The notes below the pieces were generated by a model. The model was not told the origin of the DNA. It made no database searches and worked only from the letters and a program-made list of their open reading frames with translations. Shown here piece after piece: positions 23,072 to 47,504 of a DNA stretch of 64,000 bases. Origin of the DNA: Thermoanaerobaculia bacterium (GTDB lineage: Bacteria > Acidobacteriota > Thermoanaerobaculia > UBA5066); NCBI GenBank assembly GCA_963816185.1, contig CAWFJJ010000005.1, positions 251,787 through 315,786 of the forward strand, given 5' to 3'. Every line of letters starts with the position of its first letter. Position 1 is the first letter of the stretch. Position numbers and translations under genes: made by a program.

Positions 23072-25863
23072 CACTCTTCCTTCAGCGCGGCCGCGACGTC
23101 CGTCGCAGCCGCAAGGCTGGCCGGCCGCGAGGCAGCCGCGAGCGTCGCGAGAAGGACGAGGGCGAGCGCCGCCGCGAGGAAGCCCCACGGCGTGTGCATC
23201 GCGATCGTCCAGCCGAATGACTGGCGGTTGATGACGTGGACGAGGACGAGCGACATCGCGCCTCCCGCGAGCGCCCCGAGGCCGGCCCCGAGACCGCCGA
23301 TCGCGGCCGCCTCGTAGCGGACGGCTCTCTTCACCCGGGCTGCCGAGGCCCCGAGGACGCGCAGAAGGCCGATCTCGCGCCGCCTTTCGAGGACGAGCGC
23401 GGTCAGCGTGTTGAAGACGCCGAGCACGGCCACGGCGAGCGCCACGACCTCGAGCGCGTACGTGACGGCGAACGTCCGATCGAAGATCCTGAGGACGATC
23501 TTTCGGAGCGTCGCGTTCGTCCGCACCCGGAGCGCGAACCGTCCGCGCAAGGCCGCCGCCACGCGGCGTGCCCCTTCCTCGGGCGAGACTCCGTCCTTCA
23601 GCGTCACGGCGACGGACGAAGCGCCGGTGAGCGGCCAGAGCCTCTGAAAATGTGCGCGGTCGAGCGTCACCGTGCCGCGATCGTTCGAGTAATCCGTGTA
23701 GACCGCGGCAACGCGCACCCGGACGGGCCCGCGGTCGGTCGGGAGCTCCACGAAATCGCCCGGCTTCACGTGGAATTTCTCGCCGAACGGCTCCGAGATC
23801 ATGGCCTCGTCCTTTCCGAGGGCGTCCGTGAAGACCTTCCTCGTGTCGCGCCCGTCCACGAGCGGCAGGTTCCCGTGCTTCGCGATGAACGCGAAGAGGC
23901 CCGATCCCACGGTGAACGGCACTCCATCTCGCGTGGCGGGGAAGGCGAGGAACGGGTCGACGTCGTCCACGCCCGGCACCGCGCGCACGAGGTCGATCGC
24001 TTCGTCCGGGATCCGGCCGAAGGACGGGCCGGACCTTCCGCTCGCCGGCGACAGGAAGAGATCCGAGGCGAGCGTCTGGCCGATCCACGTCGCGACCGTC
24101 GTGCGGAAGGAGCCGACCATGACGGCGACCGAAACCATCATCGCGAGAGCCATCGTGAGCGCGGCCACGGCCACCGATGTGCGCGAGAGGCTGCCGGTCA
24201 GGTTCGCGCGAGCGAGGCGCGCCTCGACGCCCAAGAGGCGCAGCGCAAACCGGTCGAGGCGCGTGGCCGCGAAAGTCACGGCCGCGGGAGCGAGCAGGGA
24301 GACGCCCGAAGCGATCAGGAAGACCGAGAGGAATCCGAAGAGAGGGAGGCCGTTGACGGGCCCGGACCGCGTCGCGACGAATGCGAGGACGAGCAGGGCC
24401 GTGCCCGCGAGAGCGAGAGGACGTGTCCTTCGACGGCGCACGGCCTCGACCGAGCCGTGACGCATCGTCGCGGCGGGCTCGACGCGCGCGGCCTCGAGGG
24501 CGGGGGCGAGAGCCGACAGGATGGACGAGACGACGCCGACGGAGAACGCGAGGAGCAGCACGCGAGGGTCGAGGTGGAGCACCGGATGCGCCGAGGGAAG
24601 GTAGAGCTCGGTCGCGGTGCCGCCCACGAGGAGGAGCGCGCCCTCCGCAAGCGCGACGCCGAGGGCCACGCCGGCCGCGCTTCCGAGGACGCCGAGCACG
24701 AGCCCCTCGGCGAGGAAGACGGCGAACACGGACCGCTTCGACGCCCCGAGCGCGCGGACGGTGCCGATGTCCGTGCGACGCCGCAAGACCGAGATGGACA
24801 GTGTGTTGTAGACGAAATACATCCCGACGAGGAGGGCGATCAGGCCGAGGGCGGAGAGGTTCACGCGAAACGCGCGGACCAGATGCTCGACGGTCTGCGT
24901 GCGCCGCTCCGGGCGCCCGGCCGTCGTGCCCGGGGGCAGCGACGCGCGGATCTCCTCCTCGAAACGCGCGCGGCCGTCTTCCGGAAGGCCGGGCGGCAGA
25001 ACGACGTCGATGCGGTCGAGGCGGCCGACCTTCCCGAATGCCTCCTGCGCGACCGCGAGGTCCATGAACACGATCGAGCCGGAGGCCGCACGCGCGGCGC
25101 CAAGGGGCCGAAGCACGGCGGCGACGCGGAACGTGCGCTCCACGCCGTTCGTGACGAGGTGCAGCGAACTCCCGGTGTGAAGAGAATTTCTTTCTGCGAA
25201 TACAGAGGTGACCAGGATCGAATTCTTTTCGAAGACGGATAAGAGGTTTGCTTCGGACCCGTTCGCGTCGTGTTTTGCGTCGGCTCCGGGTGAAGGCGTT
25301 TCGCTCGCTTCGCTCGCGTGCTTAGAAGGGGAAATTTCCTCGGGGCGCGCCGAACCAATGCCGCTTTGCCCGGCCGTCCCCGCGCGCTCCTGACCCTTAT
25401 TACCTTCTAAGAAAATCGTAGGCTGCGTTTCACGAGCCCCACTGTAGTTCGCGCGTTCCGGCGAACCGTCCTGCGAGGGAGCAAATCCGTATTCTCTTGC
25501 TGCCGCGTCCGCGAGCGGGTCGATGCCGAGCACCTCGACGACCTCGCCGTCCGCAGCGCCCGCCGCGGCCGTTTCGGTGATCGCGGGCGCGAGCGTCGCC
25601 CCCTCGCGACGGAGCCAGGCGAGGCGCTCCAGCGCGGCCTCGGGAATGCCCGGGCCGTCCGCGAGCACCGTGATCCCGGCCTTTCCGGCGACGAGGTCCA
25701 CGGTGTCGGAGAAAGACGAAAGGACCGAAGCGTTCGCGAGGCGGATCGCGGCGATCGTCGCGACGCCGACGGCGATGCCCGAGACCGTGAGGAGGAAGCG
25801 AAGCCGGTCCCTCGCGGCCGGCCGGAGGACGAGCGGGCCGATCAGCGAAAAGAAACCGATCAT
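23071..25863 (-). CDS. FtsX/MacB-type ABC transporter permease (AttF/G-like) with an in-frame low-complexity insertion
   Basis: Two FtsX halves ('RRTDIGTVRALGAS', 'ERRREIGLLRVLGAS'); atypical segment at ~25190-25490. Confidence 0.92.
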   Translation of the reverse strand: MIGFFSLIGPLVLRPAARDRLRFLLTVSGIAVGVATIAAIRLANASVLSSFSDTVDLVAGKAGITVLADGPGIPEAALERLAWLRREGATLAPAITETAAAGAADGEVVEVLGIDPLADAAAREYGFAPSQDGSPERANYSGARETQPTIFLEGNKGQERAGTAGQSGIGSARPEEISPSKHASEASETPSPGADAKHDANGSEANLLSVFEKNSILVTSVFAERNSLHTGSSLHLVTNGVERTFRVAAVLRPLGAARAASGSIVFMDLAVAQEAFGKVGRLDRIDVVLPPGLPEDGRARFEEEIRASLPPGTTAGRPERRTQTVEHLVRAFRVNLSALGLIALLVGMYFVYNTLSISVLRRRTDIGTVRALGASKRSVFAVFLAEGLVLGVLGSAAGVALGVALAEGALLLVGGTATELYLPSAHPVLHLDPRVLLLAFSVGVVSSILSALAPALEAARVEPAATMRHGSVEAVRRRRTRPLALAGTALLVLAFVATRSGPVNGLPLFGFLSVFLIASGVSLLAPAAVTFAATRLDRFALRLLGVEARLARANLTGSLSRTSVAVAALTMALAMMVSVAVMVGSFRTTVATWIGQTLASDLFLSPASGRSGPSFGRIPDEAIDLVRAVPGVDDVDPFLAFPATRDGVPFTVGSGLFAFIAKHGNLPLVDGRDTRKVFTDALGKDEAMISEPFGEKFHVKPGDFVELPTDRGPVRVRVAAVYTDYSNDRGTVTLDRAHFQRLWPLTGASSVAVTLKDGVSPEEGARRVAAALRGRFALRVRTNATLRKIVLRIFDRTFAVTYALEVVALAVAVLGVFNTLTALVLERRREIGLLRVLGASAARVKRAVRYEAAAIGGLGAGLGALAGGAMSLVLVHVINRQSFGWTIAMHTPWGFLAAALALVLLATLAAASRPASLAAATDVAAALKEE
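25228..25416. repeat. motif cluster A (TTC-N3-GAA family sites)
   Basis: ATTTTCTTAGAAGG on minus (25403-25416), GCTTAGAAGGGG on plus (25320-25331), degenerate GTCTTCGAAAAG on minus (~25225-25236). Confidence 0.6.
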
Positions 25864-26540
25864 GGCTCGAGCCGTCCGTCACGCAGGTGGAGGATGCGCG
25901 AGGCGCGCGCCGCGGCTTCGGCCGAGTGCGTCGCCATGACGACGGTGATGCCGCGCTCCGTCACGAGGGCCGAGACGAGGGCGAGCACCTGCTCGCCCGT
26001 CTTCGAGTCGAGATTGCCGGTCGGCTCGTCGGCGAGGAGGAGCGCGGGCCCGTTCGCGAGCGCACGCGCCACGGCGACGCGCTGCATCTGCCCGCCTGAA
26101 AGCTCGTACGGGTAAGAGCGCGCCTTGTCCGAGAGGCCGACGTCGGAAAGACCTCGCGCCGCGCGCGCATCCGCGTCGGCCGGGGAGACTCCGTCGAGGA
26201 GGAGCGGCAGCGCGACGTTCTCGAGGGCCGTCATCGTGGGCAGGAGGTTGAAGAACTGGAATACCGTGGCCGCGGTTTTCCGTCGGTACGCGTCGCGTTC
26301 GTCCTCGGACAGCGTCGCGAGATCCTTCCCGTCCACGAGGACGCGGCCCGCCGTCGGGCGATCGAGACCGCCGAGGAGATTCAGGAGCGTCGACTTGCCG
26401 CAGCCCGAAGGTCCGAGGAGAGCGGTGAAGGTGCCGGGCTCGAGCGCGAGAGAGACGCCGAGGAGCGCGTCGACCCCGGCGGCCCCGTTTCCGCCGCCGT
26501 ACGACTTCGTCACGGACTCGGCGATCACGCGGGCGCCCAT
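25860..26540 (-). CDS. ABC transporter ATP-binding protein (LolD/MacB-like)
   Basis: GPSGCGKST, LSGGQ, LLADEPTGNLD. Confidence 0.95.
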   Translation of the reverse strand: MGARVIAESVTKSYGGGNGAAGVDALLGVSLALEPGTFTALLGPSGCGKSTLLNLLGGLDRPTAGRVLVDGKDLATLSEDERDAYRRKTAATVFQFFNLLPTMTALENVALPLLLDGVSPADADARAARGLSDVGLSDKARSYPYELSGGQMQRVAVARALANGPALLLADEPTGNLDSKTGEQVLALVSALVTERGITVVMATHSAEAAARASRILHLRDGRLEP

Positions 26541-26584
26541 GAGCCTCATCCTACGTATGATGCCCGCGTCGGGATGGACGCCGC

Positions 26585-27394
26585 GTGCTGAAAAACCTCG
26601 CCGGCCTGTGGCGCCACCGCGCGCTCGCGTACGTCCTCGTCGCCCGCGAGCTGAAGGCCCGCTATCGCGGCAGCGTTCTGGGATTCTTCTGGTCGCTCCT
26701 GAACCCCCTCCTGATGCTCGCGGTCTACGCGATCGTCTTCGCCGTCATCTTCACGGGCCGCGGTCCCGAGACGTCGCCGTACGCGTTGTTCCTCTTCTCC
26801 GGTCTCCTGCCGTGGAACTGGCTCTCGTCGTCGCTGACGGACGCGGCGGCATCGCTGACGACGCACGGGGCGCTCCTCAAGAAGATCCTCTTCCCGGCCG
26901 AGGTGCTGCCGATCGTGGCGGTTCTCGCGCAAGGCCTCCACTTCGTCTTCGCCCTGCCTGTCCTTCTCGCCGGCCTCGTCCTCGGCGCTCTCGGCGTCTT
27001 CGGCCCGTCGATCCCCCTCGGATGGCCGCTCGTGCAGGCCCTCCCGCTCTTCGTTCTCGAAGGGATCTTCGTCGGAGGGGTCGGGCTGCTCCTCGCCGCT
27101 CTCACGGTCCATTTTCGCGACGTGAAGGATCTCCTCGCGACGGCGCTGTCGCTCTGGTTCTTCGCGACGCCCGTCCTGTACAGGCTCGACGACATCAAGC
27201 AGGAGCGCGTGCGCGCGCTCTTGCTCTTCAATCCGGCGGCACCCTTCTTCGATGGGTGGCACGACGCGCTTTTCTACGCACGGTGGATCGAGCCGTCCCG
27301 GTGGGGCCTCCTCCTCGCGATCGCGTGCGCGTCGTTTTTCCTCGGGTATGCGCTCTTCGACCGGCTGCGCGACTCGTATCCGGAGGCGGTGTGA
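26585..27394 (+). CDS. wzm: polysaccharide ABC exporter permease
   Basis: 'ELKARYRGSVLGFFWSLLNPL', 'LLKKILFP', 'FRDV', 'TPVLY', 'NP'. Confidence 0.9.
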   Translation: MLKNLAGLWRHRALAYVLVARELKARYRGSVLGFFWSLLNPLLMLAVYAIVFAVIFTGRGPETSPYALFLFSGLLPWNWLSSSLTDAAASLTTHGALLKKILFPAEVLPIVAVLAQGLHFVFALPVLLAGLVLGALGVFGPSIPLGWPLVQALPLFVLEGIFVGGVGLLLAALTVHFRDVKDLLATALSLWFFATPVLYRLDDIKQERVRALLLFNPAAPFFDGWHDALFYARWIEPSRWGLLLAIACASFFLGYALFDRLRDSYPEAV

Positions 27395-28920
27395 AGCCCG
27401 TCACGCCGGCCGTCACGGCCGAAAGCCTTTCGAAGAGCTATCGAAAATGGGGGCGCACGCGCGCGTTCGGGACGCTCAAGTCGGCGCTTCTCGGGCGCTC
27501 GCTGGCGGCGGCGCTCGCCCCTTCCGAGGTCGTGGCCGCGCTCTCGGACGTGTCTTTCACGGTCGCACGCGGCGAGACCTTCGGCGTCGTGGGGCCGAAC
27601 GGCTGCGGCAAGTCCACGCTCCTGAAGCTCGTCGCCGGCCTCTTCAAGCCCACCTCGGGGCGGATCGCCGTCGATGGGAAGGTCTCGGCGCTCATCGAGC
27701 TCGGCGCGGGCTTCCACCCGGAGATCTCGGGACGCGAGAACGTCGTCATCAACGGCGTCATGCTCGGGCTCTCGCGCAAGGAGATCGAGCGGAAGCTGCC
27801 CGAGATCATCGCGTTCTCGGGCCTCGAAGGCTTCATCGACGAGCCCGTGAAGACGTACTCGTCGGGCATGTACGTGCGCCTCGGCTTCGCGGTGGCCGTG
27901 CACGTGGACCCGGACATCCTCGTCGTGGACGAGGTCCTCGCCGTGGGCGACGAGGCCTTCGCGCACCGCTGTCTCGACACGATCGCGGAGTTCTCGCGGC
28001 GCGGCAAGACGATTTTCTTCGTCTCGCACTCGCTCGTCCTCGTCGAGGATCTGTGCGACCGCGTGCTTTACCTCGAGGGCGGCCGGATCAAGGCGCTCGG
28101 CGATCCCAGAGAGACGCTCGCGAAATACCGCATGAACGTCGCGGCGGGGGAGGGCGCACGTCTCTCGACGGAGCATCGGAAGGATCAGGAGATTCTGCTT
28201 CGGACAAGAGAAGAGAAGATTTTCTCAAAAGGGGAAGAGGGGGCGGCGGCGGGCGGCGAGACGGCGCTGCGCGCCGGGGAAACTGCTGCACGCGGGGATT
28301 CGGCGCATTTCTTAGAAGGGGCAAAAGGCTCAGGGGCTACCGGTGCCGGATCGGCTGTCGAGCGGGCTGACTCTCATACCCCCTTCAAAGAAAATCCACC
28401 CTTGCCCGAAGCGTCTCGAAAGCAGGAAACACAACAGAGCGTGGAGTCACCTCTGGAACAGAAGAATCCTCTTCGCCGATGGGGCAACCGGGACGTGTCG
28501 ATCACGGGCTGCCGCTTGCTCGACGCCTCCGGCGCCGAGCGCTACGCGTTTCGCTCGGGGGAGTCGCTGACGGTCGAGATCTCCGTGGCGCCGCGGGCCT
28601 CCACCGCCGATTTCGTCTTCGGGATCGGGATCTTCACGCTCGAGGACGTGTGTGTGCACGGCAGCAACACGGAGACCGACGGCTTCCTGCCGGAACGCCT
28701 CGACGGCCCGGCGACGGTGCGCGTGACGCTGCCGCGCCTCGACCTCGGGACCGGGACGTATCTCCTGGACGTGGCGGTCCACTCCCGCCGCGAGACGCCT
28801 TACGACTACTGGCGCGGCGCGTGCCGCTTCCAGGTGGATTCGCCCGATCGCGACGCGGGCCTCTATCGCCCGGAACGCCTCTGGACGTTCGCGGGCGCCG
28901 TCTCGGTGAGCGCGCGGTGA
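27391..28920 (+). CDS. wzt: polysaccharide ABC exporter ATPase with Wzt C-terminal domain
   Basis: GPNGCGKST, 'LGAGFHPE', YSSGM, 'DEVLAVGD'; C-terminal Ig-like domain after a long atypical linker. Confidence 0.92.
   Translation: MKPVTPAVTAESLSKSYRKWGRTRAFGTLKSALLGRSLAAALAPSEVVAALSDVSFTVARGETFGVVGPNGCGKSTLLKLVAGLFKPTSGRIAVDGKVSALIELGAGFHPEISGRENVVINGVMLGLSRKEIERKLPEIIAFSGLEGFIDEPVKTYSSGMYVRLGFAVAVHVDPDILVVDEVLAVGDEAFAHRCLDTIAEFSRRGKTIFFVSHSLVLVEDLCDRVLYLEGGRIKALGDPRETLAKYRMNVAAGEGARLSTEHRKDQEILLRTREEKIFSKGEEGAAAGGETALRAGETAARGDSAHFLEGAKGSGATGAGSAVERADSHTPFKENPPLPEASRKQETQQSVESPLEQKNPLRRWGNRDVSITGCRLLDASGAERYAFRSGESLTVEISVAPRASTADFVFGIGIFTLEDVCVHGSNTETDGFLPERLDGPATVRVTLPRLDLGTGTYLLDVAVHSRRETPYDYWRGACRFQVDSPDRDAGLYRPERLWTFAGAVSVSAR
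28219..28395. repeat. motif cluster B (TTC-N3-GAA family sites)
   Basis: ATTTTCTCAAAAGGGG (+, 28219), ATTTCTTAGAAGGGG (+, 28307), ATTTTCTTTGAAGGGG (-, 28380-28395). Confidence 0.7.
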
Positions 28921-30614
28921 TCCGTCCGGAACGCGTCGACCGGACGCTCCTTTCGCTTCTCCTCCTCGCGATCCTGCTGCTCGTCCTCGAGCCCGGCGTG
29001 GTCCCGCTCTTCGAGCCGGACGAAGGCCGGTACGCCGAGATTCCGCGCGAAATGCTCGCCTCTCACGACTTCCTGACTCCGCGCCTGAACGGCGTTCTTT
29101 ACTTCGAGAAACCGCCGCTCTACTACTGGACGGTCGCCGCGTCGATGGCGCTCCTCGGGCCGACGGAGCTCGCGGTGCGCCTCCCGGGGAAGCTCGCCGC
29201 GGTGTCGATGGTCCTCCTCGCGGTGGCATTCGCTCGGCGGCGTTGGGGAGCCCGTACGGGGCTTCTCGCCGGGTTGATCCTTTCGACGTCGATTCTCCTC
29301 GTCGCACTCGCGCGGATCGCGCTGATCGATCCGATGCTCTCGGCTGCGCTCACCGCGGCGACGTTCGCCTTCGTTTCGTTCGCGGAGAGTGACGCCGCGG
29401 GAGATGGCCGTCGCGGCCGGCGCGCTCTTTACGCCTTTTACGCCGCATGCGCGGCGGCCGTACTCCTCAAGGGTCTCGTCGGCATCGTCCTGCCGGGAGG
29501 CGCAATCGTCGTCTGGACGCTCGTCACGGGCCGGTGGGGGACGCTGGCCAGAATCTTTTCGGCAGGACCGATCCTTCTGTTCTGCGTCCTCGCGATTCCC
29601 TGGCACGTCGCGATGGCTCTCCGTCATCCCGACTTCCTCCAGTTCTACTTCGTGCACGAGCACTTCCAGCGTTTCACGACGATGGAGTCCCGGCGTCCGG
29701 GGCCCCCCGGCTACTTCATTCCCGTCCTCCTCGCGGGTTTCCTGCCGTGGACCGGCTTTTTCGGGCGATTTCGGGAGGTGTGGCCGGGCTTTTCACGCGG
29801 CCGGTGGCGTGGCCGCGGGACAGAAGCGTTCCTCTGGATCTGGGCCTTTCTCGTCTTCGCTTTCTTCTCAGTCTCGAAGTCGAAGCTCATCCCGTACGTC
29901 CTCCCGATATGGCCCGCGCTCTCGGTGCTCCTCGCTCTCGGCATCGAGCGAGCCCGTCAGCGCGGCGCGGAGTTCCGAGCGGACCGGCGCCTCTCTGCGG
30001 CGTTCTTCGGACTCCTCTTCGCCGCGGCGGCGGCATACGGCTGGGGCGCGGGATATCTCGAGCGCTTCGGGGGCGCGCGCACGGGCCTCTTCGCGCTCCT
30101 GGCCCTCCTCGGCGGATTCGTCCTCAACGTGTCGCCTCGACTCTTCCACCCGCGGCGGGGCGGTGATCCGGCGCTGGCCGTGGCCGCGCCGTGGCTCACG
30201 TTCGTGGCGGGGCTTCTCATCGTGCTTCCCGGCGTGGCCCGTGAGATCACGCCGTGGCCGATCGCGTCGCGGACCCTCGAGATTCTGGAGCCGGACGACC
30301 TTCTCCTGCAGAAGGGGCACTACCTCGAGGTGCTTCCGTTCTACGTCAGGCGCCTCACGCCGGTGGCTTCGCTCGGCTGGAGCGAGCTCGACTTCGGCCG
30401 TTCTCATCCCGGAACCGAAACGCTCTTTCCGTCCGACGAAGCGTTCGCGGCGGACTGGAACGGGAGCCGGCGAATGCTCGTCGTCGTGCACCGGGATCAG
30501 CTCGGCGCGTTCGGTCGGTCGCCGTTGTCGGCAACTCCCGCGACGTTCCTCGCCAGGGAAACTAGCGGAAAGCATCTGCTGCTCTCGAATCGGCGGATAG
30601 GATCGGATCCATGA
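28917..30614 (+). CDS. arnT: ArnT-like lipid A 4-amino-4-deoxy-L-arabinose transferase (GT83)
   Basis: 'PDEGRYAEIPREM', 'YFEKPPL', 'KG', 'EHFQRF', 'SKSKLIPY'; in an operon with arnC/A/D. Confidence 0.85.
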   Translation: MIRPERVDRTLLSLLLLAILLLVLEPGVVPLFEPDEGRYAEIPREMLASHDFLTPRLNGVLYFEKPPLYYWTVAASMALLGPTELAVRLPGKLAAVSMVLLAVAFARRRWGARTGLLAGLILSTSILLVALARIALIDPMLSAALTAATFAFVSFAESDAAGDGRRGRRALYAFYAACAAAVLLKGLVGIVLPGGAIVVWTLVTGRWGTLARIFSAGPILLFCVLAIPWHVAMALRHPDFLQFYFVHEHFQRFTTMESRRPGPPGYFIPVLLAGFLPWTGFFGRFREVWPGFSRGRWRGRGTEAFLWIWAFLVFAFFSVSKSKLIPYVLPIWPALSVLLALGIERARQRGAEFRADRRLSAAFFGLLFAAAAAYGWGAGYLERFGGARTGLFALLALLGGFVLNVSPRLFHPRRGGDPALAVAAPWLTFVAGLLIVLPGVAREITPWPIASRTLEILEPDDLLLQKGHYLEVLPFYVRRLTPVASLGWSELDFGRSHPGTETLFPSDEAFAADWNGSRRMLVVVHRDQLGAFGRSPLSATPATFLARETSGKHLLLSNRRIGSDP

Positions 30615-32611: not shown

Positions 32612-32621
32612 AATCGCGCCA

Positions 32622-33578: not shown

Positions 33579-33606
33579 TGGGTGGAATCGTTCGAGGGGA
33601 AGGTTG

Positions 33607-34521: not shown

Positions 34522-34575
34522 CTCGCGAAGCCTCGCGTAGACTGCTTTGAGACGAAGATCTCGAAAGGGAGGCGC

Positions 34576-35607: not shown

Positions 35608-36650
35608 AGAAGCTCGCCCTCAAGGTCGATGTCGACACGTACCGCGGAACGCTCGAGGGCGTGCCGAGGCTCGTCGACCTCTTCCAAAGGCACGGCGTCA
35701 AGGCGACGTTCTTCTTCTCGCTCGGTCCCGACACGAGCGGCAAGGCGATCAAGAGGGTCTTCCGGAAGGGGTTCATCCGGAAGGTCCTCTCGGCGAACCC
35801 GGCGGCGTCCTACGGCTTTCGCACGATGCTCTACGGGACGCTCCTCCCTTCGCCCGACATCGGCCGGCGGAGGGAGACCGTCGCGCGAATGCGCGAAGCC
35901 GCGGCGGCCGGGCACGCCGTCGGCATCCACGCGTGGGACCACGTCGACTGGCACGATCGCCTGCCGAAGATGACGAGGGACGTGATCGAGGAGATCGTCG
36001 CGAACGAGCACGGGCGCTTCGCCGAGATCTTCGGAGAGAGGGCGCGGTTTCAGGCGGCCCCGGGCTGGACCGCGACACCCCTTTCCGTCGAGGTGCAGGA
36101 GGCGCACGGCCTCGTCGCGACATCGGACACGCGCGGGGGCGGGCCGTTCTTTCCGATTCGGGCGGACGGAACGGTCTCGAAAGTCCTGGAGATTCCCTCG
36201 ACGCTGCCCACGCTGGATGAGCTGCTGGCGGTGCCTTTACCCGGGGCCGGGACGCAGATCGAAAGGGCCTGTGAATTTCTTAGAAGGGGAATGAGGGAAG
36301 GAGCGGCGGGCGGAGGCGGAGCGGAGGCTGCGGCGGCGGAGCACGGGCCGGCCGCGCGTCGAGCCGCCATCGAAGTGCATTCGATCCACACGGAAATCGA
36401 GGGCGGGGCCGCTTTTTTCGCGCCGTTCGCCGACTTGCTCGCGGCGTGGGAAAGCGACGGCGTTTCCTTTCTTACCTTCGAAGAAGTTTGCAGAACGTTG
36501 CTTCCTGCTTCTGCGCCTGCACGAAGCGAGAGGGAAAGCGCATCGCCACCCGCACGAAGCGCTCGGGAGCAAATCTCGATTCCCGTCAAACGTCTCGGCT
36601 GGACGAGGCTCCCTGGGCGCGCGACGCCGGTCGCGACCGGAGTGGGATGA
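35604..36650 (+). CDS. arnD: 4-deoxy-4-formamido-L-arabinose-phosphoundecaprenol deformylase
   Basis: 'LKVDVDT.RGT.EGVP.L', 'FFFSLGPD', 'HAWDH', 'APGW', 'SDTRG', 'TLPTLDE', 'IHTEIEG'; contains short in-frame insertions. Confidence 0.88.
   Translation: MKKLALKVDVDTYRGTLEGVPRLVDLFQRHGVKATFFFSLGPDTSGKAIKRVFRKGFIRKVLSANPAASYGFRTMLYGTLLPSPDIGRRRETVARMREAAAAGHAVGIHAWDHVDWHDRLPKMTRDVIEEIVANEHGRFAEIFGERARFQAAPGWTATPLSVEVQEAHGLVATSDTRGGGPFFPIRADGTVSKVLEIPSTLPTLDELLAVPLPGAGTQIERACEFLRRGMREGAAGGGGAEAAAAEHGPAARRAAIEVHSIHTEIEGGAAFFAPFADLLAAWESDGVSFLTFEEVCRTLLPASAPARSERESASPPARSAREQISIPVKRLGWTRLPGRATPVATGVG
36275..36487. repeat. motif cluster C (TTC-N3-GAA family sites)
   Basis: ATTTCTTAGAAGGGG (+, 36275) and ACTTCTTCGAAGGTAAG (-, core 36477-36485). 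Confidence 0.65.
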
Positions 36651-36657
36651 TCGGCGC

Positions 36658-37116
36658 ATGAAGAGCCTGCAGGAGACTTACGCGCCCGAAAACCGCTGCT
36701 TCGGGTGCGGCCCCGCGAACGAGAAGGGGCTGCGCATCCGGAGCTTCCTCGAGGGAGACGAGTTTGTCGCGACCTGGAAGGCGGAGCCTCATCACCTCGC
36801 TTTCGAAGGCATCGTGAATGGGGGCATCATCGGGGCCCTTCTCGATTGCCACAGCAACTGGGCCGCGACGTATCACCTCATGAAGGAAGCCGGCGCTGCC
36901 TCGCCGCCGTTCACGGTCACGGCGGACTTCCACGTGCGCTTGAAGAGGCCCACGCCCATCGAGGAGCCCCTCCATCTGAAGGCGCGCGTCGTGGAATCCT
37001 CCGGCGACCGTGCGGTCGTGGACGCCGAGCTCGAGGCGGGCGGGAAAGTGACGGCGACGTGCCGCGGCACGTTCGTGGCCGTGCGCGAGGGTCATCCGGC
37101 GTTCAAGCGCTGGTAG
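36658..37116 (+). CDS. PaaI family thioesterase
   Basis: 'CFGCG..N..GL', 'GIVNGGIIGALLDCH'; hotdog fold. Confidence 0.88.
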   Translation: MKSLQETYAPENRCFGCGPANEKGLRIRSFLEGDEFVATWKAEPHHLAFEGIVNGGIIGALLDCHSNWAATYHLMKEAGAASPPFTVTADFHVRLKRPTPIEEPLHLKARVVESSGDRAVVDAELEAGGKVTATCRGTFVAVREGHPAFKRW

Positions 37117-37130
37117 AGGGTCTCCGCCCG

Positions 37131-39416: not shown

Positions 39417-40156
39417 CGGAAGATCGGGTCGCTCCGCCATCCCCACTTGACGGCCTTGAACCGGGCCATGACGCCGAGGATCGAGAGGCCGTAGATGCAC
39501 GAGCTCCAGAAGTCGATCTGCGAGGCCTCGTCGAAGTAGCGCGTCACGATCGGGACCTCGCGGATGCGCATGTTCTTCCAGATGCCCGCCGCGATGATCT
39601 CCGTGTCGAAGACGAAGCCGTCCGAGAAGGCCTCGAGGTTCACGCTCTCGAGGTACCGGCGCGAATAGGCGCGGAGGCCCGAATGGTACTCGGTGAGGTA
39701 GAGGTAGAACGTGGCGTTTTCGACGGCGGTCAGAAAGATGTTCGCGAGGTATTTCCACTTCGGCATCCCGCCTTCCAGCGGGCGCCCCCCGAGCATCCGG
39801 CTGCCGAACATCGCGTCTTCCTCGCCGCGCGCGATCGGGCCGATCAGATCGGGGAGGACGGAGGCGTCGTACTGGTGATCGGGGTGCACCATGATGCAGA
39901 TGTCCGCGCCGCGTTGGAGCGCCGTCGCGTAGCACGTTTTCTGGTTCGCTCCGTAGCCTCGGTTCCGGGCGTGGGTCACGACGTGAAGGCCCGGGATCGC
40001 GCGCGCGGCCTCGACGGTACCGTCCCTCGAGGCGTCGTCCACGAGGATGACGTCGTCGACCCAGTCCTTCGGGATCTCGTTCCACGCAAGATGCAGCGTC
40101 TTCTCGGCGTTGTAGGCGGGCATCACGACGGCCACCCGCTTTCCCTGAATCGGCAT
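39413..40156 (-). CDS. GT2 glycosyltransferase (polyprenol-phosphate sugar synthase-like)
   Basis: 'VVMPAYNAE', 'VDDAS', 'NRGYG', 'HPDHQY', 'GSR'. Confidence 0.92.
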   Translation of the reverse strand: MPIQGKRVAVVMPAYNAEKTLHLAWNEIPKDWVDDVILVDDASRDGTVEAARAIPGLHVVTHARNRGYGANQKTCYATALQRGADICIMVHPDHQYDASVLPDLIGPIARGEEDAMFGSRMLGGRPLEGGMPKWKYLANIFLTAVENATFYLYLTEYHSGLRAYSRRYLESVNLEAFSDGFVFDTEIIAAGIWKNMRIREVPIVTRYFDEASQIDFWSSCIYGLSILGVMARFKAVKWGWRSDPIFR

Positions 40157-40168
40157 CTCCTCGGGATT

Positions 40169-42088
40169 CTAGGGTGCCGCCGCCTCGAGCACGCGAAAGA
40201 CACGGAAACGCGGCTGGAAGCTTCCGTCGGCGCGCCGCGTGCCGGTCTTCGAGTCTAGGACCCTCTCGAGGAACGGCGCCGGGCGCGCCGCATCCGACTC
40301 GTGCACCCGCCGCGCGAACATCCTCTCGGTCGGCGTGGGCAGCCGGCCGGCCGCGGCCGCGTAGGCGGGAAGCAGCCGCGTGAGGTCGGTCGTGACGAGA
40401 TACCGGCACTTTGCGGCCGAGAGGATCGCGAGAGCTTCCGCGTCGTCCGTCGCCGTGAAGAGCCGGCACTGCCTGCGCCAGCCGTAGACGAATGGATCGG
40501 CCGCGGACGGGCGCTCGGCGATCGCCGTCACGAAGTGCCCGGCGGACCACGGCGGCATGACGCCCGGGATAGCGCCAGGGGCCGGCGGCGGCACGACCGA
40601 CGGATCCACCGGAGGCGGATCGAGCGCGCGAAGCCGCGCGAAGAGGTCGAGGACGTCATATCCCGGCCCATCTGCAAAGGTCATCGCCCGCGCGAGATAG
40701 GGGGCGCCCGGGACGACGACGAGGCACACGGCGAGAACCATCGGAAGGACGGTGCTCGCACGCCGAGGGAGCCGGCGAGGTGCGAGCCGCGCGAGGAGCT
40801 CGGCGAGCGCGAGCGCCGCGAAGATCGCCAGGTAATAGACGTTGCGCTGCTGAAAGAGGGTCATCGCGAACACGGCCGCCGCGAAGAAGGCGAGGAGGAG
40901 GCGCGTCGCGACCCGAGGCCGGAGCGGTCGCCGGAGCGCGGGTCCGAGCCACAGGAGCGCCGCGATCGGCACGAGAACGAAGCCGGGAGAGACCTCGCGG
41001 ACCGCGCGCTCGAATGTGCTCCACCCGCGCACCAGAGGCTGACATTCGGCGACGAGGCGCAGGAACTCGGGCGGATAGGAAAGGAAGCCTCCATCCGCGA
41101 AGTCGTCGACCCGCGCGCCCGCCCCGCCCTTGAAGACGTACGCGCCGCCATGAAAGACCGCCTCGAGAACACGCCGCGCGTTCGGCAGAGCGATTCCGAG
41201 GCCGAGAGCGGTGAGGAGCCCCCACAGCGCCCGCCGCCGGGCCGTTGACGCGCGCCAGGCCGCCGCCGCGAGAAGCGGCACCGTGGCGCCCGTGAGGAGC
41301 AAGGGCTGGAACCATCCGAAGGAGACGAACGAGAAGGGCACGGGATCCGCCGGAAGGGTTAGCGCTGCTCCGAGGGCGACGAGAGCCGTCGCCACGAGGC
41401 CCGATACCGCGGCGGCCTCGCCGAGAGCAATCGCGGCCCACAGGAACGCGAGGCCGGCCACGAACACGGCCCCCTGCCACGTGAGGACCGCCAGGGCGAT
41501 CGCGGCTCCAAAGGGGAGGGCGCGCGCGAACCGCGCGTCGCCGCGTGCCGTCGCGGCCCACGCGCCGGCCGCGAGAACCAGGAGCAGGTTCAAAGCCTCG
41601 GCCACGTGATGATCGAAATGACCGAAGCCGCCCCAGAGCACCGCTGCGGGGAGCGCGACATAGGCCGCGGTCGCGATCCGGGCGCGCCGCCGGCCGAACG
41701 CCCGCCGCGCCACGGCGAAGAGGGGCAGGATCTGGAGCGCGCCGAGGAGCGCGGGAAGAGTCGCCGCGACTTTCAGGACTTCCTCCGTCGTGGCGCGGCG
41801 ACCGAAAAGAGCGCGCGCGACGCCGCCCGCGACGAGGTCGAAGGCCGGAGGCCAGATGAAGACGCCGCCGTCCGGATGATTCAGGTACGGATCGCGATAC
41901 GGGACGCGAGGGAAGTTCCGCGCGACCGAGACGGTCCGCCGGAGGTGCCCGTAGCAGTCAGGCGAAAGGAGGCGCCAGCCGCGCGCCGTTGCTGCCGGGA
42001 ACGGAGCGAGCCGCAGCGCGAGAGACGCGAGGAACATGCACCACACGAACCGCCCGTCCCGCGAGAGGCCTCCGGAGCGCGCGCTCAC
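40169..42088 (-). CDS. STT3/AglB-like oligosaccharyltransferase
   Basis: 'PDCYGHLRR', 'DPYLNHPDG..FIWPP.FD', 'GHFDHHVAE', 'VAECQPL', 'PWSAGH' at the WWDYG position, 'RPSAADPF', 'EALAIL....RYLV'. Confidence 0.75.
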   Translation of the reverse strand: MSARSGGLSRDGRFVWCMFLASLALRLAPFPAATARGWRLLSPDCYGHLRRTVSVARNFPRVPYRDPYLNHPDGGVFIWPPAFDLVAGGVARALFGRRATTEEVLKVAATLPALLGALQILPLFAVARRAFGRRRARIATAAYVALPAAVLWGGFGHFDHHVAEALNLLLVLAAGAWAATARGDARFARALPFGAAIALAVLTWQGAVFVAGLAFLWAAIALGEAAAVSGLVATALVALGAALTLPADPVPFSFVSFGWFQPLLLTGATVPLLAAAAWRASTARRRALWGLLTALGLGIALPNARRVLEAVFHGGAYVFKGGAGARVDDFADGGFLSYPPEFLRLVAECQPLVRGWSTFERAVREVSPGFVLVPIAALLWLGPALRRPLRPRVATRLLLAFFAAAVFAMTLFQQRNVYYLAIFAALALAELLARLAPRRLPRRASTVLPMVLAVCLVVVPGAPYLARAMTFADGPGYDVLDLFARLRALDPPPVDPSVVPPPAPGAIPGVMPPWSAGHFVTAIAERPSAADPFVYGWRRQCRLFTATDDAEALAILSAAKCRYLVTTDLTRLLPAYAAAAGRLPTPTERMFARRVHESDAARPAPFLERVLDSKTGTRRADGSFQPRFRVFRVLEAAAP

Positions 42089-42136
42089 CCCGAAGAGCGT
42101 AACAGGCGTCCGTCTCCCTCCCCCTACAATCGCCGG

Positions 42137-43867
42137 ATGGTCGAGAGTCGCCCGGTGAGGTTCTGGGCCGCCGTCCTCTTTCTCGCCGCGGCGGGCTCGG
42201 CGCTCGTCTTCGACCACTCGCGCCTCGACAGTCCCACGATGGACGAGCCGTTCCACACGCTGGCCGCGGCGGAATACGCGATCGCAGGCACGTATTACGC
42301 AAACCTCGAGCACCCGCCGCTCGTGAAGCTCCTGTCGGGCTTCGCGATCCGGGCGGCCGGGGGGCGCGCGCCGAAGATGGAGGTCCCGTTCTCCATGGCT
42401 TCGGCCGAGCAGCCACGGCCTTTCAGCTTCAACTCGCCTCTGCGCCCGGAGAAGCTGTTCGCCGTCGCGCGGGCGCCGGTGACGGCGCTCTTCTTCCTTC
42501 TCGTCGTCGTCGCCGGCTGGGCCGTGCGGTCGTGGGCCGGCGATCTCGCCGGAATTCTCGCGGCTGCGCTGGTCGCCTTCGAGCCGAACCTCCTCGCGCA
42601 CGCGGGCGTTGTGCACACCGATCTCGCGGCTGCTCTCGGTTTCTTCGGAACGCTGGTCCTCGCCCTGCGCGCCCTCGAACGCCGATCGCTCGGCCGCTGG
42701 GCGGCCACGGGGGCCGCGCTCGGCGCGAGCCTCGCCGCGAAGTTCTCGTGCGTCCTCCTCGTCCCGATGGTCGCGCTCCTCGCGCTGACCGGGCTCTTCC
42801 GGGAGCGTCGCGCGGCCGCCCGCGAGGGCCGCCGTCCCGACCTGCTCGAGCTCAAGGGACTTCTTCTCGCGGGCGCGGCCTCCCTCGTGATGCTCCTCGG
42901 AAGCTACGCGATCGCCATGCGGCACATGAGCGGCGACGAAGCGGTCAAGGCGGTCCGTATTTTTCTCGCCTCGCGGCAGGCTCCGGAGGCAACCATCGAT
43001 CGGATGGTTGCGATCTCGCGGCTGTCCAAGGAGGCCGGCCACTATGCCGCGGGCCTCGCGGGGATCGCCGTCCAGAACCGGACGGGCGGCGGTGTGAACG
43101 ACTTGCGCGGGAAACTCTCCGTGGACGGATTCTGGGACTACTTCTTCGTCGCCTTCGCGGTGAAGAGCACGCTCGCCACGCTCGCGGTTCTGGGACTCGC
43201 ATGCATCGCGGGCGTCGCGCGAAGGGTCCGGCCCGATCTCGTCTTTCTCACCCTCGTCCTCCCGCCCGTTTATCTCTTCCTGACCGGCATGGCGACGTCG
43301 TACAACATCGGGATCCGCCACATGCTGCCGGTTTACCCGCTGCTCCTCTCGGCGGCCGTCCTCGTTCTCTTCCGGTCTCTCCCGATGCGTGCGGCCGCGG
43401 CGGTCGTCGCGACTTTGACCATCGTGCAGCTCGTCGAGACCCTGCGGGTCCATCCCCACGAGCTCTCGTTCTTCAATGCGGCCGCCGGCGGGCCCGCGAA
43501 CGGCGCGGCGTGGCTGAACGATTCGAATCTCGATTGGGGTCAGGACCTCGAGCGGCTCGCGCGGCAGCTCGAGGCGCGCGGAGAGGAAGCGAAGACGACA
43601 ATCGCGTATTTCGGCGGCGCGGACGTGACGTACTACGCCCCGAAAGCGACCGTGTTCATCCCCACCAAGACGCCGTTTCGCCCGGGTCTCTGGGCGGTCT
43701 CGTCATTCCTGATGTGCTGCGGGCCCGAGGCGATGGCTTTTCATGGTGATCCGGCCGCTGCGTACGGCTTCCAGCAGCTTCGCCGCGAGATTTCCACTCG
43801 CGGAACGCCCGTGGGACGCGTGGGATACTCGATCGTCCTGTACGACCTGAGAGAGAAGAGCCCATGA
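42137..43867 (+). CDS. GT39/PMT-like (GT-C) glycosyltransferase
   Basis: 'TMDEPFH', 'NLEHPPLVK', 'HTD', 'AKFS', 'IGIRH.LP', '[10 protein letters not shown]'. Confidence 0.85.
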
Positions 43868-45267
43868 AGCTGTCGATCGTGATGCCGGCGTTCAACGAGC
43901 GCCGGACGATTCGCGAAATCCTCGCGCGCGTCCAGGCCGTAAAACTCGGAGACCTCGATCGCGAGATCGTGATCGTGGACGACGGCTCGCAGGACGGCAC
44001 GCGGGACATCCTCCGCGAGCTCGACGGCAAGGACGGAGTCCGCGTCCTCCTGCAGCCGCACAACATGGGGAAGGGAGCCGCAGTCTGGGCCGGCATGCGC
44101 GCCTCGACGGGCGATCTCGTCGTCATCCAGGACGCCGACCTCGAGTACGACCCGGAGGAATACCCGGTTCTGCTCGGGCCCATTCTCGCGGGGAAGGCCG
44201 ACATCGTGTACGGATCCCGCTTTCTCGGCAGCCCCCACGGACACCGCGTCCTCTATTTCTGGCACACCGTGGGCAACCGACTGCTCACGCTCATGTCGAA
44301 CGTCTTCACGGACCTGAACCTGTCCGACATGGAGACCTGCTACAAGCTCATGACGCGAGGTGTCGCGGATCGGCTGGATCTCAAGTCACAACGCTTCGGC
44401 ATCGAACCCGAGATCACGTGCAAGGTGTCGCGCATGCGCGCCCGGATTTACGAAGTCCCCATCTCGTACAGCGGGCGCACGTACGAGGAAGGCAAGAAGA
44501 TCGGCGCCAAGGACGCCTTCCAGGCGGTCTGGACGATCCTGAAGTACTTCCGGTGGGAGGCGCCCGACAGCGACGTCGGGGCGATCACGCTCCGGCGGAT
44601 GGGTGAGCTCTCGGTCTACAACCGCTGGCTTCACGACCGGGTCGAGTCCTGGCTCGGGTCGCGCATCCTCGAGGTCGGCTCGGGTGTCGGGAACCAGACG
44701 CGTTTTTTCGCGGACCGGGAGCGCATCATCGCGTCGGACATCGAGCCGCACTACGTGCGGGAACTCCGCACGCGGTTCGAGAAGCAGGGAAACATCCGCG
44801 TCGCCTCGTTCCGGTTTCCGCTGACCCGGGAAGACCGTGCCGACCTCGAGCAGGAGCGGATCGACTCGATCGTCTGCATGAACGTGCTCGAGCACATCGA
44901 GGATGACGCGGGAACGCTCGCAGACTTCTGCCGCGTCCTCCAGCCCGGAGGGCACCTCGCCCTCCTCGTGCCCGCGCTGCCCGCCCTCTACGGCTCGCTC
45001 GACGAGAATCTGCGCCACTACCGCCGGTACGACAAGGGGGCGCTCGCGACCCTCGTGGGGCGCGCGGGCTTCGCGGTGGAATCGGTGAGGTACCTGAACC
45101 GGCCCGGCGTCCTCGGCTGGTGGCTGAACTCGCGCGTTCTCAAGCGCCGCGTCCTTCCGAAACGCCAGCTGGGCGCCTTCAAATGGATCATGCCGCTGCT
45201 CAAGACAGAGGAGAAGACGGAGCCGTCGTTCGGGATGTCGCTCCTGGTCCTGGCGCGGAAGCCCTGA
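43864..45267 (+). CDS. GT2 glycosyltransferase fused to class I SAM methyltransferase
   Basis: N-terminal 'DDGS', 'QDADLEYDP', 'DMETCYK'; C-terminal 'LEVGSGVG', 'NVLEHI', 'HYRRY'. Confidence 0.9.
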
Positions 45268-45272
45268 ACGGC

Positions 45273-47504
45273 GTGAAGAAGGAGGCTCCAGGCCTGGCAC
45301 CGGTGCTCGCCGTCGTCTTCGGCGCCGCTGCGCTCCGTTTCGCGCCTTTCTTGGCCGGGGGCACCCTGTATCGGCGCGACGCCGGCTTCTTCTTCACCCC
45401 CTGGAGGCTCGTTCTTGCGAGATTCCTGCGGTCGGGCGAGGCGCCCTTCTGGAACGAATGGATGTCGGCGGGGCGAGCATTCGCGGCCGACCCGAATGCC
45501 GCCGTGTTCTGGCCTCTGTCGCCGCTTCTCGTCGTCTTGTCGCCGACCGCCCTCGCGTTCGCGAACGTTTTTCTCGCCCTCCTGGTCTTCTTCGTCGCGA
45601 TGAGGCGCCTCGGGCTCAACGCGGTCGCCTCAGGAGCGGGGACGGTCGTGCTTCTTTTTTCCGGTGTCTTCCAATCGCTGCCCGTGTACGCGACGACCTG
45701 CGCAGCCGCTCTTCCGCTCTCTCTCGCGCTCGTCGAGGCTCCGCGCCTGGCCTCGGGCGAATCGATCGTTCGACGCCGCGCCGGAGCGCTCGCGGCGCTG
45801 GCCTTCGGCCTGTCGGCGCTCGGCGGCGAGCCCGCCGTGACGCTCATGGGCGCGGCGGCCTTCATCGCCGTTGCGATCGGTGCGGGAGGATCGCGGCCTC
45901 GCGCGGCCGCCGTCGCGCTCTTCACGCTCGTTCTGGGTGTGGGGCTCGCGGCGATCCAGATTCTCCCGGCAGCCCTCGAGGTGGCGCGGTCCGCCCGAGG
46001 CGCCGGCATGAAACCAGAACATGGCGCTCTCTTCTGGTCTGTGCGCCCCGCGCGCGTCCTTACACTCCTCGAACCCCGGCTCACGGGAGATCCGGCCGGC
46101 GACGCGGCGTCGTTCTGGGGATCCGCCACGTTCGACGCGGGGAGCCCGTATTTCGAGGATCTTGCGCTCGGCCTCGTTCCTCTCCTGCTGGCGGCGGCCG
46201 CGTGGCGCGACCGCCGCGGGCGCGCCGCGCTGCTTCTCGCGCTCGCGGGAACCGTCCTGTCCTTCGGCCGGTTCCTCCCCGGGTATTCGTTCCTGGCGGC
46301 GGCCCTTCCGGTCATCCGGTACCCCGAGAAGTGGTGGCTGCTCGTGACCTTCGCGGTCGCGGCCGCGGCCGCGGTCGGGGTGGAGGCGGTCTTCTTCGAT
46401 GAAGCCGAGGTTCGGGCGCGGGCGCGAAGGATTTTGCTGAGGACTGCGGTCGGAATGGCTCTCGTCTGCGGCGCCTTTCTCGCTTTGGCGATCGGCGCTG
46501 AAGATTTTCTTAGAAAGGGTTTATGGGCGCTGGGGCTCGGCGCGGGCGAGGCTTCGACTGCAGCCATCGCTCTCTCTCTTCGATCTCCACTCATTCTAGG
46601 AACTCTTAGTCTTGCTTTCATCGCAGCATTCACGTGGTTCGTCGCGCGCAACCGGCCGCCCGCCGCCCCAGTCACCTTCGGAGAAAAACTGCGCAGCCCG
46701 CTGCTCCTCGCCGGCATTCTCAGCGCACTGTTCTTCGCCGACGCCGCCCGGCGCGTCGCGGGGACGTGCCCCGCAGGGCCGTCCGACCTCTACCGCCGCG
46801 TGACGCCTGCCGTGGCGCTCGTCGTGAAGGAGGCCGGGCACGGGCGTTTCTACGATGATGGCGCGGACGATGCTGCGACTGCGGCGCGACGGACGCGTGA
46901 GGCGGGCGGCCTCGACCCGCTCCGTCCAGACACGGGCGTGGCCTTCGGGATCCGGTACGCGGGGGAGAACGACGTGGACCGTATGACGGCGCCCGCCTCT
47001 GTGTTCTTCGCGCGTGAGATCGAGGGCCTCGCCTGGGGGGAGGAGAAGGTCGAACGCTTGCGCCGGCTCGGGGTGGCGGTCGTCCGGACGCCCGCGGCGC
47101 CGCCCGATCCGGCCGGTGTCGTCGAGGCCGGGCGCTTCGGCGGGGATCGGATCGTGCGCATCGAGGGGGTCCGCGAGGAGCTCGCGCTCCTCCCGACGGG
47201 AAGCGGACGCGTGACGGTGAAGACACGCGGCGCGAACCTCATACGTCTCGGGGTCCACGTCGCGCTGCCCGCCGCGGTCCTTTCCATCTCGCGGACGTTC
47301 GATCCGAGCTGGCGTGCCCTCCTCGACGGGAAAGAGCTCGCGCTCCGTCCCGCGGATGGATTCCTGACGGTCGCGGACGTGCCGACGGGAGACCACGAGA
47401 TCGTGCTTCGGTACGAGAATCCGGCCTTCGGAGCCGGGGCGACGCTGTCGCTTGCGTCCCTCCTGGCCGTCGCTCTTCTCGGCCGGCGGCCGAGGCGTTC
47501 ATGA
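45273..47504 (+). CDS. YfhO-like GT-C membrane protein
   Basis: 'YRRD', 'PFWN....G.AFAADPN', 'GGEP', 'RYPEK', 'PSWRA..DG', 'VP.G.HEI.LRY'. Confidence 0.8.
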   Translation: MKKEAPGLAPVLAVVFGAAALRFAPFLAGGTLYRRDAGFFFTPWRLVLARFLRSGEAPFWNEWMSAGRAFAADPNAAVFWPLSPLLVVLSPTALAFANVFLALLVFFVAMRRLGLNAVASGAGTVVLLFSGVFQSLPVYATTCAAALPLSLALVEAPRLASGESIVRRRAGALAALAFGLSALGGEPAVTLMGAAAFIAVAIGAGGSRPRAAAVALFTLVLGVGLAAIQILPAALEVARSARGAGMKPEHGALFWSVRPARVLTLLEPRLTGDPAGDAASFWGSATFDAGSPYFEDLALGLVPLLLAAAAWRDRRGRAALLLALAGTVLSFGRFLPGYSFLAAALPVIRYPEKWWLLVTFAVAAAAAVGVEAVFFDEAEVRARARRILLRTAVGMALVCGAFLALAIGAEDFLRKGLWALGLGAGEASTAAIALSLRSPLILGTLSLAFIAAFTWFVARNRPPAAPVTFGEKLRSPLLLAGILSALFFADAARRVAGTCPAGPSDLYRRVTPAVALVVKEAGHGRFYDDGADDAATAARRTREAGGLDPLRPDTGVAFGIRYAGENDVDRMTAPASVFFAREIEGLAWGEEKVERLRRLGVAVVRTPAAPPDPAGVVEAGRFGGDRIVRIEGVREELALLPTGSGRVTVKTRGANLIRLGVHVALPAAVLSISRTFDPSWRALLDGKELALRPADGFLTVADVPTGDHEIVLRYENPAFGAGATLSLASLLAVALLGRRPRRS
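46504..46687. repeat. motif cluster D (TTC-N3-GAA family sites)
   Basis: ATTTTCTTAGAAAGGG (46504), TTCTAGGAA (46594-46602), TTTTCTCCGAAGG on minus (46675-46687). Confidence 0.65.

Follow-up and report, generated by a model that had tools for sequence, protein, structure and literature searches.

An inward-facing pair of short DNA arms, repeated between and inside genes of a Thermoanaerobaculia genus

Introduction

A stretch of 64,000 nucleotides from a Thermoanaerobaculia bacterium (GenBank assembly GCA_963816185.1, contig CAWFJJ010000005.1, positions 251,787 to 315,786; C5:251787-315786 in our contig numbering, and hereafter the window) carries one and the same short sequence inside four unrelated genes, encoding an FtsX-type permease, a Wzt protein, a polysaccharide deacetylase and a YfhO-like membrane protein. 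The question that this locus raises is what places and keeps a single DNA word within the coding sequences of such different proteins. The first-pass annotation of the window had proposed an undescribed system of phased motif clusters, serving either as binding sites for a dimeric protein or as hotspots of a cutting or mutagenic process. Here, we followed the motif through the whole 5.09-Mb assembly (30 contigs, ~67% GC, 94.9% complete) and its relatives, and found that the repeated unit is a pair of conserved arms that face each other across unrelated DNA and are abundant throughout one genus.

Motif abundance and base composition

The exact 10-mer TTTCTTAGAA occurs four times in the window, at 25405-25414 (- strand), 28308-28317 (+), 36276-36285 (+) and 46506-46515 (+), and not once in 100 dinucleotide shuffles. 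The same four copies had been noticed at first pass, with one of them placed a base off, at 25404-25413. A looser 16-mer with up to three mismatches gave six window sites where 0.10 were expected, and the 12-mer TTTCTTMGAAGG with up to two mismatches gave 19, against 6.2 expected and a shuffle maximum of 14. Nine of these 19 sites fall inside the four loci, while the remaining ten are scattered, carry one or two mismatches and are present at approximately chance level. Across the genome, TTTCTTAGAA totals 239 copies, and the 12-mer is found 149, 265 and 429 times with zero, one and two mismatches, respectively, compared with 2, 23 and 240 times in the reversed genome; its exact copies are balanced between the strands (73 vs 76). 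Using a weight matrix at a threshold of at least 18 bits, we retrieved 746 arms, against 86 in the reversed-genome control, which bears out the expectation that the enrichment would extend beyond the window. Chance or base composition as the origin of the motif is ruled out by the shuffles and reversed-genome controls.

The arm consensus is ~28 bp long and consists of a purine-rich flank followed by TTTCTT[A/C]GAAGG and then KGAARRGG, the information content lying between about -5 and +20 relative to the core. The palindromic part of a single arm comprises only the 9-bp TTCTTAGAA.

The first-pass annotation had linked the motif to AT-rich patches, and in 200-bp windows all four loci do show a GC of 0.58-0.62, compared with about 0.66-0.75 nearby. 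Genome-wide, however, the dip is restricted to the arm and its flanks, so that the AT shift is the arm itself rather than a mutagenised patch, and no evidence was found for the hotspot of cutting or mutagenesis that had been put forward. Nor are low-GC patches generally tied to the motif: only 307 of the 1172 most AT-rich 40-bp islands (GC of 40% or less) lie within 30 bp of an arm, and since 74% lack one, most of these islands must have another origin. The distribution of the motif answers the concern that the patches might be assembly artefacts, as it is equally plentiful in each of the 24 searched genomes of the genus, which come from separate assemblies.

Pair geometry and independence of the arms

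All four window loci consist of a forward arm followed by a reverse arm, in reading frames that remain open across the patch. In the gene for the FtsX/MacB-type permease, which lies on the - strand and matches Pfam FtsX and MacB_PCD, the unit spans 25318..25414 (97 bp), with arms at 25318-25329 (+, two mismatches) and 25403-25414 (-, exact 12-mer). In wzt, the patch forms the linker between the ABC_tran and Wzt_C domains; the unit at 28308..28393 has a length of 86 bp, within the modal class, and its arms lie at 28308-28319 (+, exact) and 28382-28393 (-, one mismatch, TAA being changed to AAA in frame). An additional forward arm in the same gene (28221-28232, +, two mismatches) sits within a 36-bp in-frame stretch, 28216..28251, that is gapped in the closest relative in the Wzt alignment. 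The polysaccharide deacetylase (Polysacc_deac_1) contains a unit of 211 bp at 36276..36486, with arms at 36276-36287 (+, exact, read as FLRR) and 36475-36486 (-, one mismatch, read as TFEE), and the YfhO-like membrane protein a unit of 181 bp at 46506..46686, with arms at 46506-46517 (+, one mismatch, FLRK) and 46675-46686 (-, one mismatch, TFGEK). Among the names assigned at first pass, FtsX and Wzt are supported by Pfam; 'arnD' is a label for a gene in which the domain alone is matched, and the YfhO match is weak (19.4 bits vs a cut-off of 28.5). Of the variant copies that had been described alongside the exact ones, an opposite-strand partner is present at every locus, but the sites near 25232 and 46598 exceed two mismatches.

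The same geometry prevails genome-wide. Among neighbouring arms within 1 kb, 233 are in the '+-' arrangement, whereas only two '-+' neighbours are closer than 200 bp. When arms are grouped, we obtain 166 '+-' clusters, 208 single arms, 43 clusters of the type '+--' or '++-' and a single '-+' cluster. What had been called phased clusters are, therefore, not arrays but strictly inward-facing inverted pairs. Their outer length has a mode at 84-88 bp (38 of 247 pairs) and spreads from about 50 to 300 bp, in agreement with the spacing preference that had been suspected. A second spike at 103 bp is due to one kinase paralogue family. Lengths also show a periodicity of ~9.3 bp, for which the 85 and 103 peaks are probably responsible; because the latter stems from a single paralogue family, we distrust it as a signal of helical phasing. 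Along the contigs, cluster density is over-dispersed, with a variance/mean of 2.5 per 50 kb. On contigs longer than 200 kb it ranges from ~1/7 kb (C24 and C28) through ~1/17-19 kb (C25 and C5) to ~1/31 kb (C29).

While the arms are conserved, the DNA that they enclose is not shared. No match elsewhere in the genome was found for 212 of 246 interiors, and those inspected among the other 34 are accounted for either by the paralogous kinases or by a second repeat that lies nested in a unit. Interiors, at 72.7% GC, fold with the same energy as random sequences matched for GC (p=0.60). Nor do partner arms resemble each other more than arms taken from separate pairs do: flank positions show an identity of 0.342 for partners and 0.341 for non-partners, the within-pair identity exceeds expectation by 0.009 (permutation p=0.085), and at core position 7 the odds ratio between partner arms is 1.14 (p=0.67). 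In the last two comparisons, which left out pairs with an outer length of 100-106 bp, no covariation between partner arms was detected at any variable position. Each arm thus fits a consensus and not its partner, which argues that the stem is not the selected feature and that the pairs did not arise by inverted duplication. Such independent variation agrees with a sequence-specific protein reading each of two sites, a picture close to the dimeric binder that had been suggested at first pass.

These results bear directly on a structural explanation, in which the arms would pair in RNA or single-stranded DNA and the stem would be selected as an RNase III site, a terminator or a cruciform. In 124 of 140 units the minimum-energy fold does join the two cores, but this is a trivial consequence of inverted copies, and the lack of covariation makes a selected hairpin very improbable; no Rfam match was obtained over 25-47 kb of the window either.

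The pair geometry also invites the idea of invertons, with the arms serving as inverted repeats of many small invertible segments under one master recombinase. That many loci share one inverted-repeat family, and that some units are intragenic, would suit such a system. The modal interior, on the other hand, measures just 40-60 bp or so, a very short stretch for the synapsis of a recombinase. The public sequencing runs consist of short Logan contigs with word shares of up to 0.39, of which no listed piece runs across the patches, and among the joints listed no strand change was seen at a patch, although these data are too thin to weigh much. Taken together, we regard inversion as barely credible. 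Among the pieces listed, contigs from three of these runs start or stop beside the Wzt patch (28056, 28450 and 28471), which may only reflect assembly breaks at repeats.

Units in genes and reading frames

Gene context was assigned with a home-made six-frame codon classifier, checked on the window genes; two clusters at contig edges were dropped from the counts. Of the 443 scorable clusters, 108 (~24%) have the same open frame on both sides and hence lie in coding sequence. The first-pass view of the motif as a feature of gene interiors thus holds for about a quarter of the clusters, most units being outside genes. An earlier version of the classifier placed 72 of 293 clusters in frame inside genes, compared with 41% of random positions. 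Given an in-gene share of ~24% against this 41%, units are depleted in genes yet far from excluded from them. Intergenic units show no bias between convergent and divergent contexts (16 vs 18).

Within genes, between 20 and 38 arms are read in each of the six frames, and 81 arms are in sense orientation with respect to the gene while 88 are antisense. Neither this indifference to gene orientation nor the absence of enrichment between convergent genes would be expected of a selected hairpin. In the two frames where the core A would create TAG or TAA, C or T takes its place in 26 of 32 arms of one frame and 28 of 30 of the other, whereas A is dominant in the other four frames. The use of all six frames rules out a protein-level motif and, together with the stop-avoiding core variants, identifies a DNA-level signal that is accommodated by translation. 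On both the varied reading frames and the conservation at the DNA level, the first-pass annotation was right. The accommodation also runs against codon usage, since GAG, GAA and TTA account for 48.4, 12.6 and 0.29 codons per 1000 in this genome.

Retention and gain at orthologous sites

The history of the units can be followed in orthologous genes, where ftsX, wzt and the deacetylase show the extra in-frame, low-complexity residues that had been noted at first pass. In an alignment of 20 of 25 Wzt loci (L012, L014, L015, L022 and L025 were omitted as split or truncated matches), the unit occupies the same linker position in 17 orthologues, the other three having lost the left arm and the interior. 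Identity is 0.77 and 0.83 in the arms, compared with 0.52 in the interior, and across the 17 species the disfavoured GAA is kept in all 17 and TTA in 10. The FtsX loop shows a range of states: one genome (G003) lacks the whole patch, two (G004 and G014) retain stubs, and three (G011, G038 and G039) carry pairs in other frames. In the deacetylase, a left-arm-like stretch is present in all seven genomes compared, with the variable core position read as AGA in three and CGA in four, and is most degenerate in G004; the right arm overlies a conserved TFEE(I/L/V)CR peptide, and the glycine/alanine-rich interior varies in length.

Gains are also apparent, the 36-bp stretch with an arm at 28216-28251 being one of them. 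Over a 20-kb syntenic block compared with four relatives, the units are orthologous, but in this genome only an arm with ~50 bp was gained inside an existing unit. In the same block, an empty site in one relative (G036) allowed a single comparison with the filled state, in which no clear target duplication was identified and the boundaries are uncertain.

A paralogous family of Ser/Thr protein kinases offers a different case. Here, the two arms coincide with the conserved N-lobe, the left one without any change of length relative to motif-free genera, and in four such genera the same site consists of ordinary GC-rich codons; the sister genus already has both arms. Arms can thus evidently overwrite native sequence as well as insert. 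This large kinase family has ~27 N-lobe matches here and 38-78 per genome in five genomes from five neighbouring genera, with paralogues partly in tandem arrays (C24:602-645 kb, C5:136.9 kb, C23, C4, C28 and others; relatives L181-L200). One of its subfamilies has, in addition to both arms, a serine-rich CT-tract insertion that follows the second of them.

Retention of this kind is what would be expected if the pairs were architectural or regulatory sites of the host, that is, binding or looping pairs of a chromosome-organising protein or a global regulator kept by selection, which was the leading idea at first pass. Such a role would also account for arms that vary independently while each fits the consensus, for the strict pair geometry, for the persistence of arms at orthologous sites despite codon bias and for the creation of an arm in place over kinase coding sequence. 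Against it stand the roughly tenfold variation in copy number within the genus (21-210, and 1-16 in the sister genus), the over-dispersed density, the absence of a preference for promoter-side or terminator-side contexts and the loss or truncation of units in single species without replacement. The broad spacing (50-300 bp), with a periodicity probably derived from the 85 and 103 peaks, does not suit looping sites either. We therefore consider host-selected sites rather unlikely, though they deserve to be kept in view.

Distribution among relatives

The exact 12-mer was found in all 24 genomes of the genus (g1), with 21-177 copies, and up to 210 in another, G006, and in six of seven genomes of the sister genus (g10), with 1-16 copies, the single copy being that of G079. 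It was absent from all 26 genomes of the eight other genera of the family, and in two other families it occurred in one of 63 genomes. Among the matches listed from public genome contigs, records with repeated matches are metagenome-assembled genomes of Thermoanaerobaculia or Acidobacteriota, and single matches in AT-rich taxa were taken as chance. Viral contigs yielded at least 120 matching stretches; each one listed holds a single match, which we likewise read as chance.

A lineage-specific motif that is equally frequent on both strands recalls the DNA uptake sequences of Neisseria and Pasteurellaceae, which are over-represented, occur on both strands and are found in genes in permissive frames. 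By analogy, arm-bearing fragments could be preferentially taken up and recombined, so that arms would accumulate by molecular drive. In addition to the strand balance (73 vs 76) and large over-representation of the motif, this reading is favoured by its coding copies in all frames with frame-dependent variants, by its ability, shared with uptake sequences, to arise in place by substitution and by its conservation at orthologous positions. Genes for ComEC and DprA are present, which is weak support, as both are common among bacteria and each was also matched in 10-11 of 14 control genomes. Uptake does not explain, however, why pairing should be almost invariably inward-facing at ~85 bp, and the density is much lower than that of uptake sequences (~1 arm per 7 kb) and over-dispersed, with some arms gained as insertions. 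Uptake sequences are spread rather evenly over the genome and require no pairing. This explanation appears improbable.

Comparison with known repeats and the preferred reading

The first-pass annotation knew of no described analogue. [quoted passage not shown] Among the literature matches listed, none ties a bacterial repeat to the exact 10-mer and none pairs the class name with a repeat or inverted repeat, in what were narrow searches.

REPIN systems are built on a short motif in hundreds of copies, are lineage-specific and vertically inherited over long periods, and form inverted doublets of ~100 bp, in which the single repeat is an imperfect palindrome and base pairing maintains the hairpin of the doublet. 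The family described here is similarly lineage-specific, with hundreds of copies and inverted doublets as its unit (166 '+-' clusters vs one '-+'). It differs in that the arm forms no hairpin beyond the 9-bp TTCTTAGAA, partner arms do not covary, interiors are unrelated and, while REPs are extragenic, 108 of 443 clusters lie in frame inside genes. In addition, a search for the Y1 transposase that accompanies them, the REP-associated tyrosine transposase or RAYT (PF01797), whose gene usually has its REPs on the flanks, gave no match in this 94.9%-complete genome, whereas the same search matched six of 14 control genomes. Since no RAYT gene was found, a classic REPIN was set aside. A single reverse-transcriptase locus was likewise rejected as a source, as it holds only two matches, each with two mismatches, and at least as many were seen in 20 of 200 shuffles.

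MITEs such as Correia and ERIC elements resemble the units in having terminal inverted repeats and a length of 50-300 bp, and in being mostly intergenic and occasionally intragenic. Rickettsia palindromic elements are small palindromic repeats inserted in frame and read through in unrelated genes (PMC10969869, citing Ogata et al. 2000), a conserved peptide being encoded in one frame according to that review (PMC10969869). The units resemble them in their in-frame insertion into unrelated genes. They differ in that the ~28-bp arms alone are conserved, six frames are used and interiors differ; the host, moreover, is a free-living, GC-rich acidobacterium.

These comparisons raise the alternative of an old, decayed MITE family, with terminal inverted repeats once mobilised in trans by an insertion sequence (IS) since lost. 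Small size, a modal length, terminal inverted repeats and the empty site in one relative would all agree with such an origin, and in-frame intragenic copies are known for MITEs and Rickettsia palindromic elements, as reviewed elsewhere (PMC10969869). The copies, however, lack the common internal sequence of a MITE family (for 212 of 246 interiors the genome has no second match), in one case the DNA between the arms is native kinase sequence, and conservation of the arms far beyond that of randomised interiors is unlike neutral decay. In the one comparison of empty and filled sites, whose boundaries are uncertain, no clear target duplication could be identified. Nor was a parent IS found: there are nine convergent arm pairs 400-6000 bp apart in this genome, and the five largest, which were annotated, contain no transposase. 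Their contents are leucyl-tRNA synthetase, a pseudouridine synthase, Lgt, LspA, an ABC ATPase, a peptidase S51 and a ferredoxin/metallo-beta-lactamase protein. An autonomous IS with arm ends is, therefore, rejected for those five of the nine pairs, and descent from a decayed MITE family seems improbable.

Tentatively, and with somewhat less than even confidence, we favour a REPIN-like interspersed system of paired sites, read by a putative lineage-specific protein and spreading by arm-sized patches. Each ~28-bp arm would be the recognition site of this DNA-binding or DNA-processing protein, and two inward-facing arms, usually 84-88 bp overall, would form a competent unit around arbitrary GC-rich DNA, which may even be native coding sequence. 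To such a protein, the paired sites may be what transposon terminal repeats or REPIN doublets are to their enzyme, or what operators are to a bivalent binder. The family has proliferated in one genus and is retained at orthologous positions in spite of the GC and codon pressure of the genome. Fresh arms would come in patches of about 25-75 bp, either placed next to units already present or overwriting similar sequence, whereas whole units apparently do not transpose. Where they lie in genes, copies would be insertions or overlays that are read through and that loops and linkers tolerate.

Whether such a family would serve itself or its host can be approached from two sides. The tenfold variation in copy number, the over-dispersion, the indifference to gene context and the species-specific gains lead us to lean towards a selfish or symbiotic replicator, while function or drive is favoured by the long persistence of arms despite codon bias and by their creation in place. 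A more specific proposal is a bacterial paired-site system of a kind not described before, a process that writes or maintains sites and is no transposon. A lineage-specific protein would recognise the 28-bp AT-rich arm, and arm-sized patches would be put in place or refreshed as head-to-head pairs around arbitrary host DNA, even native coding sequence, without a transposase, shared cargo or base-pairing constraint; the arms would then be kept for as long as the genus exists despite strong GC and codon pressure. This we regard as unlikely, albeit a serious candidate.

Several observations weigh against a REPIN-like system of this kind. No candidate protein emerged, and at the threshold applied 208 clusters hold one arm only. 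Patch copying is drawn from three cases, each of which could have another history, such as deletions in relatives or gene conversion. The empty site in G036 and several deletions of the FtsX patch indicate turnover, with no target duplication identified. A host function could just as well account for the long persistence of copies at orthologous coding sites. No cut, joint, excision or inversion was seen in the public contigs, which are short and whose listed pieces miss the patches, and the gene contexts come from our own frame classifier rather than from a gene finder. The samples of orthologues are also small.

If the REPIN-like reading is correct, an uncultured genus of soil Acidobacteriota would harbour hundreds of paired recognition sites that behave like long-lived genomic replicators, in a system with neither the enzyme characteristic of REPINs nor the common body characteristic of MITEs. 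The putative sequence-specific protein would be expected in the two sister genera and to be absent from the eight neighbouring genera. About a hundred proteins per genome would carry read-through arm peptides in loops and linkers, providing a natural experiment on the tolerance of proteins to insertion and on a DNA signal that overrides codon usage. The arms would also mark spots that gene callers and aligners mishandle.

Other repeats associated with the units

A second interspersed repeat of ~135 nt was found at 48 loci, all outside the window (for example, L155 at C24:151850-152300, L156, L157, L158 and L159). In it, a long hairpin comes after a short GC hairpin, and compensating changes distinguish the lower stem of the long one from copy to copy. 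At 32 of the 48 loci, an inward-facing motif arm lies within 200 bp, and one end of the repeat adjoins a half-arm (GATTTCTYAT). Inside a motif unit, one copy forms an insertion peculiar to this genome and bordered by a duplication of ~46 bp. The repeat has no Rfam family, and five copies gave only sub-threshold hairpin look-alikes.

An IS110-family IS is present in at least six equal-score copies, four of which were aligned and are nearly identical (L175-L178, at C2:4734-8177, C24:336353-339796, C24:732584-736027 and C25:391743-395186). The ends of the aligned copies do not touch the motif, and this IS was therefore rejected as its carrier. Its right end runs into AAGCTCAGCGGCGAGCG..., a sequence also found on the left flank of other copies, which may be a separate repeated target sequence.

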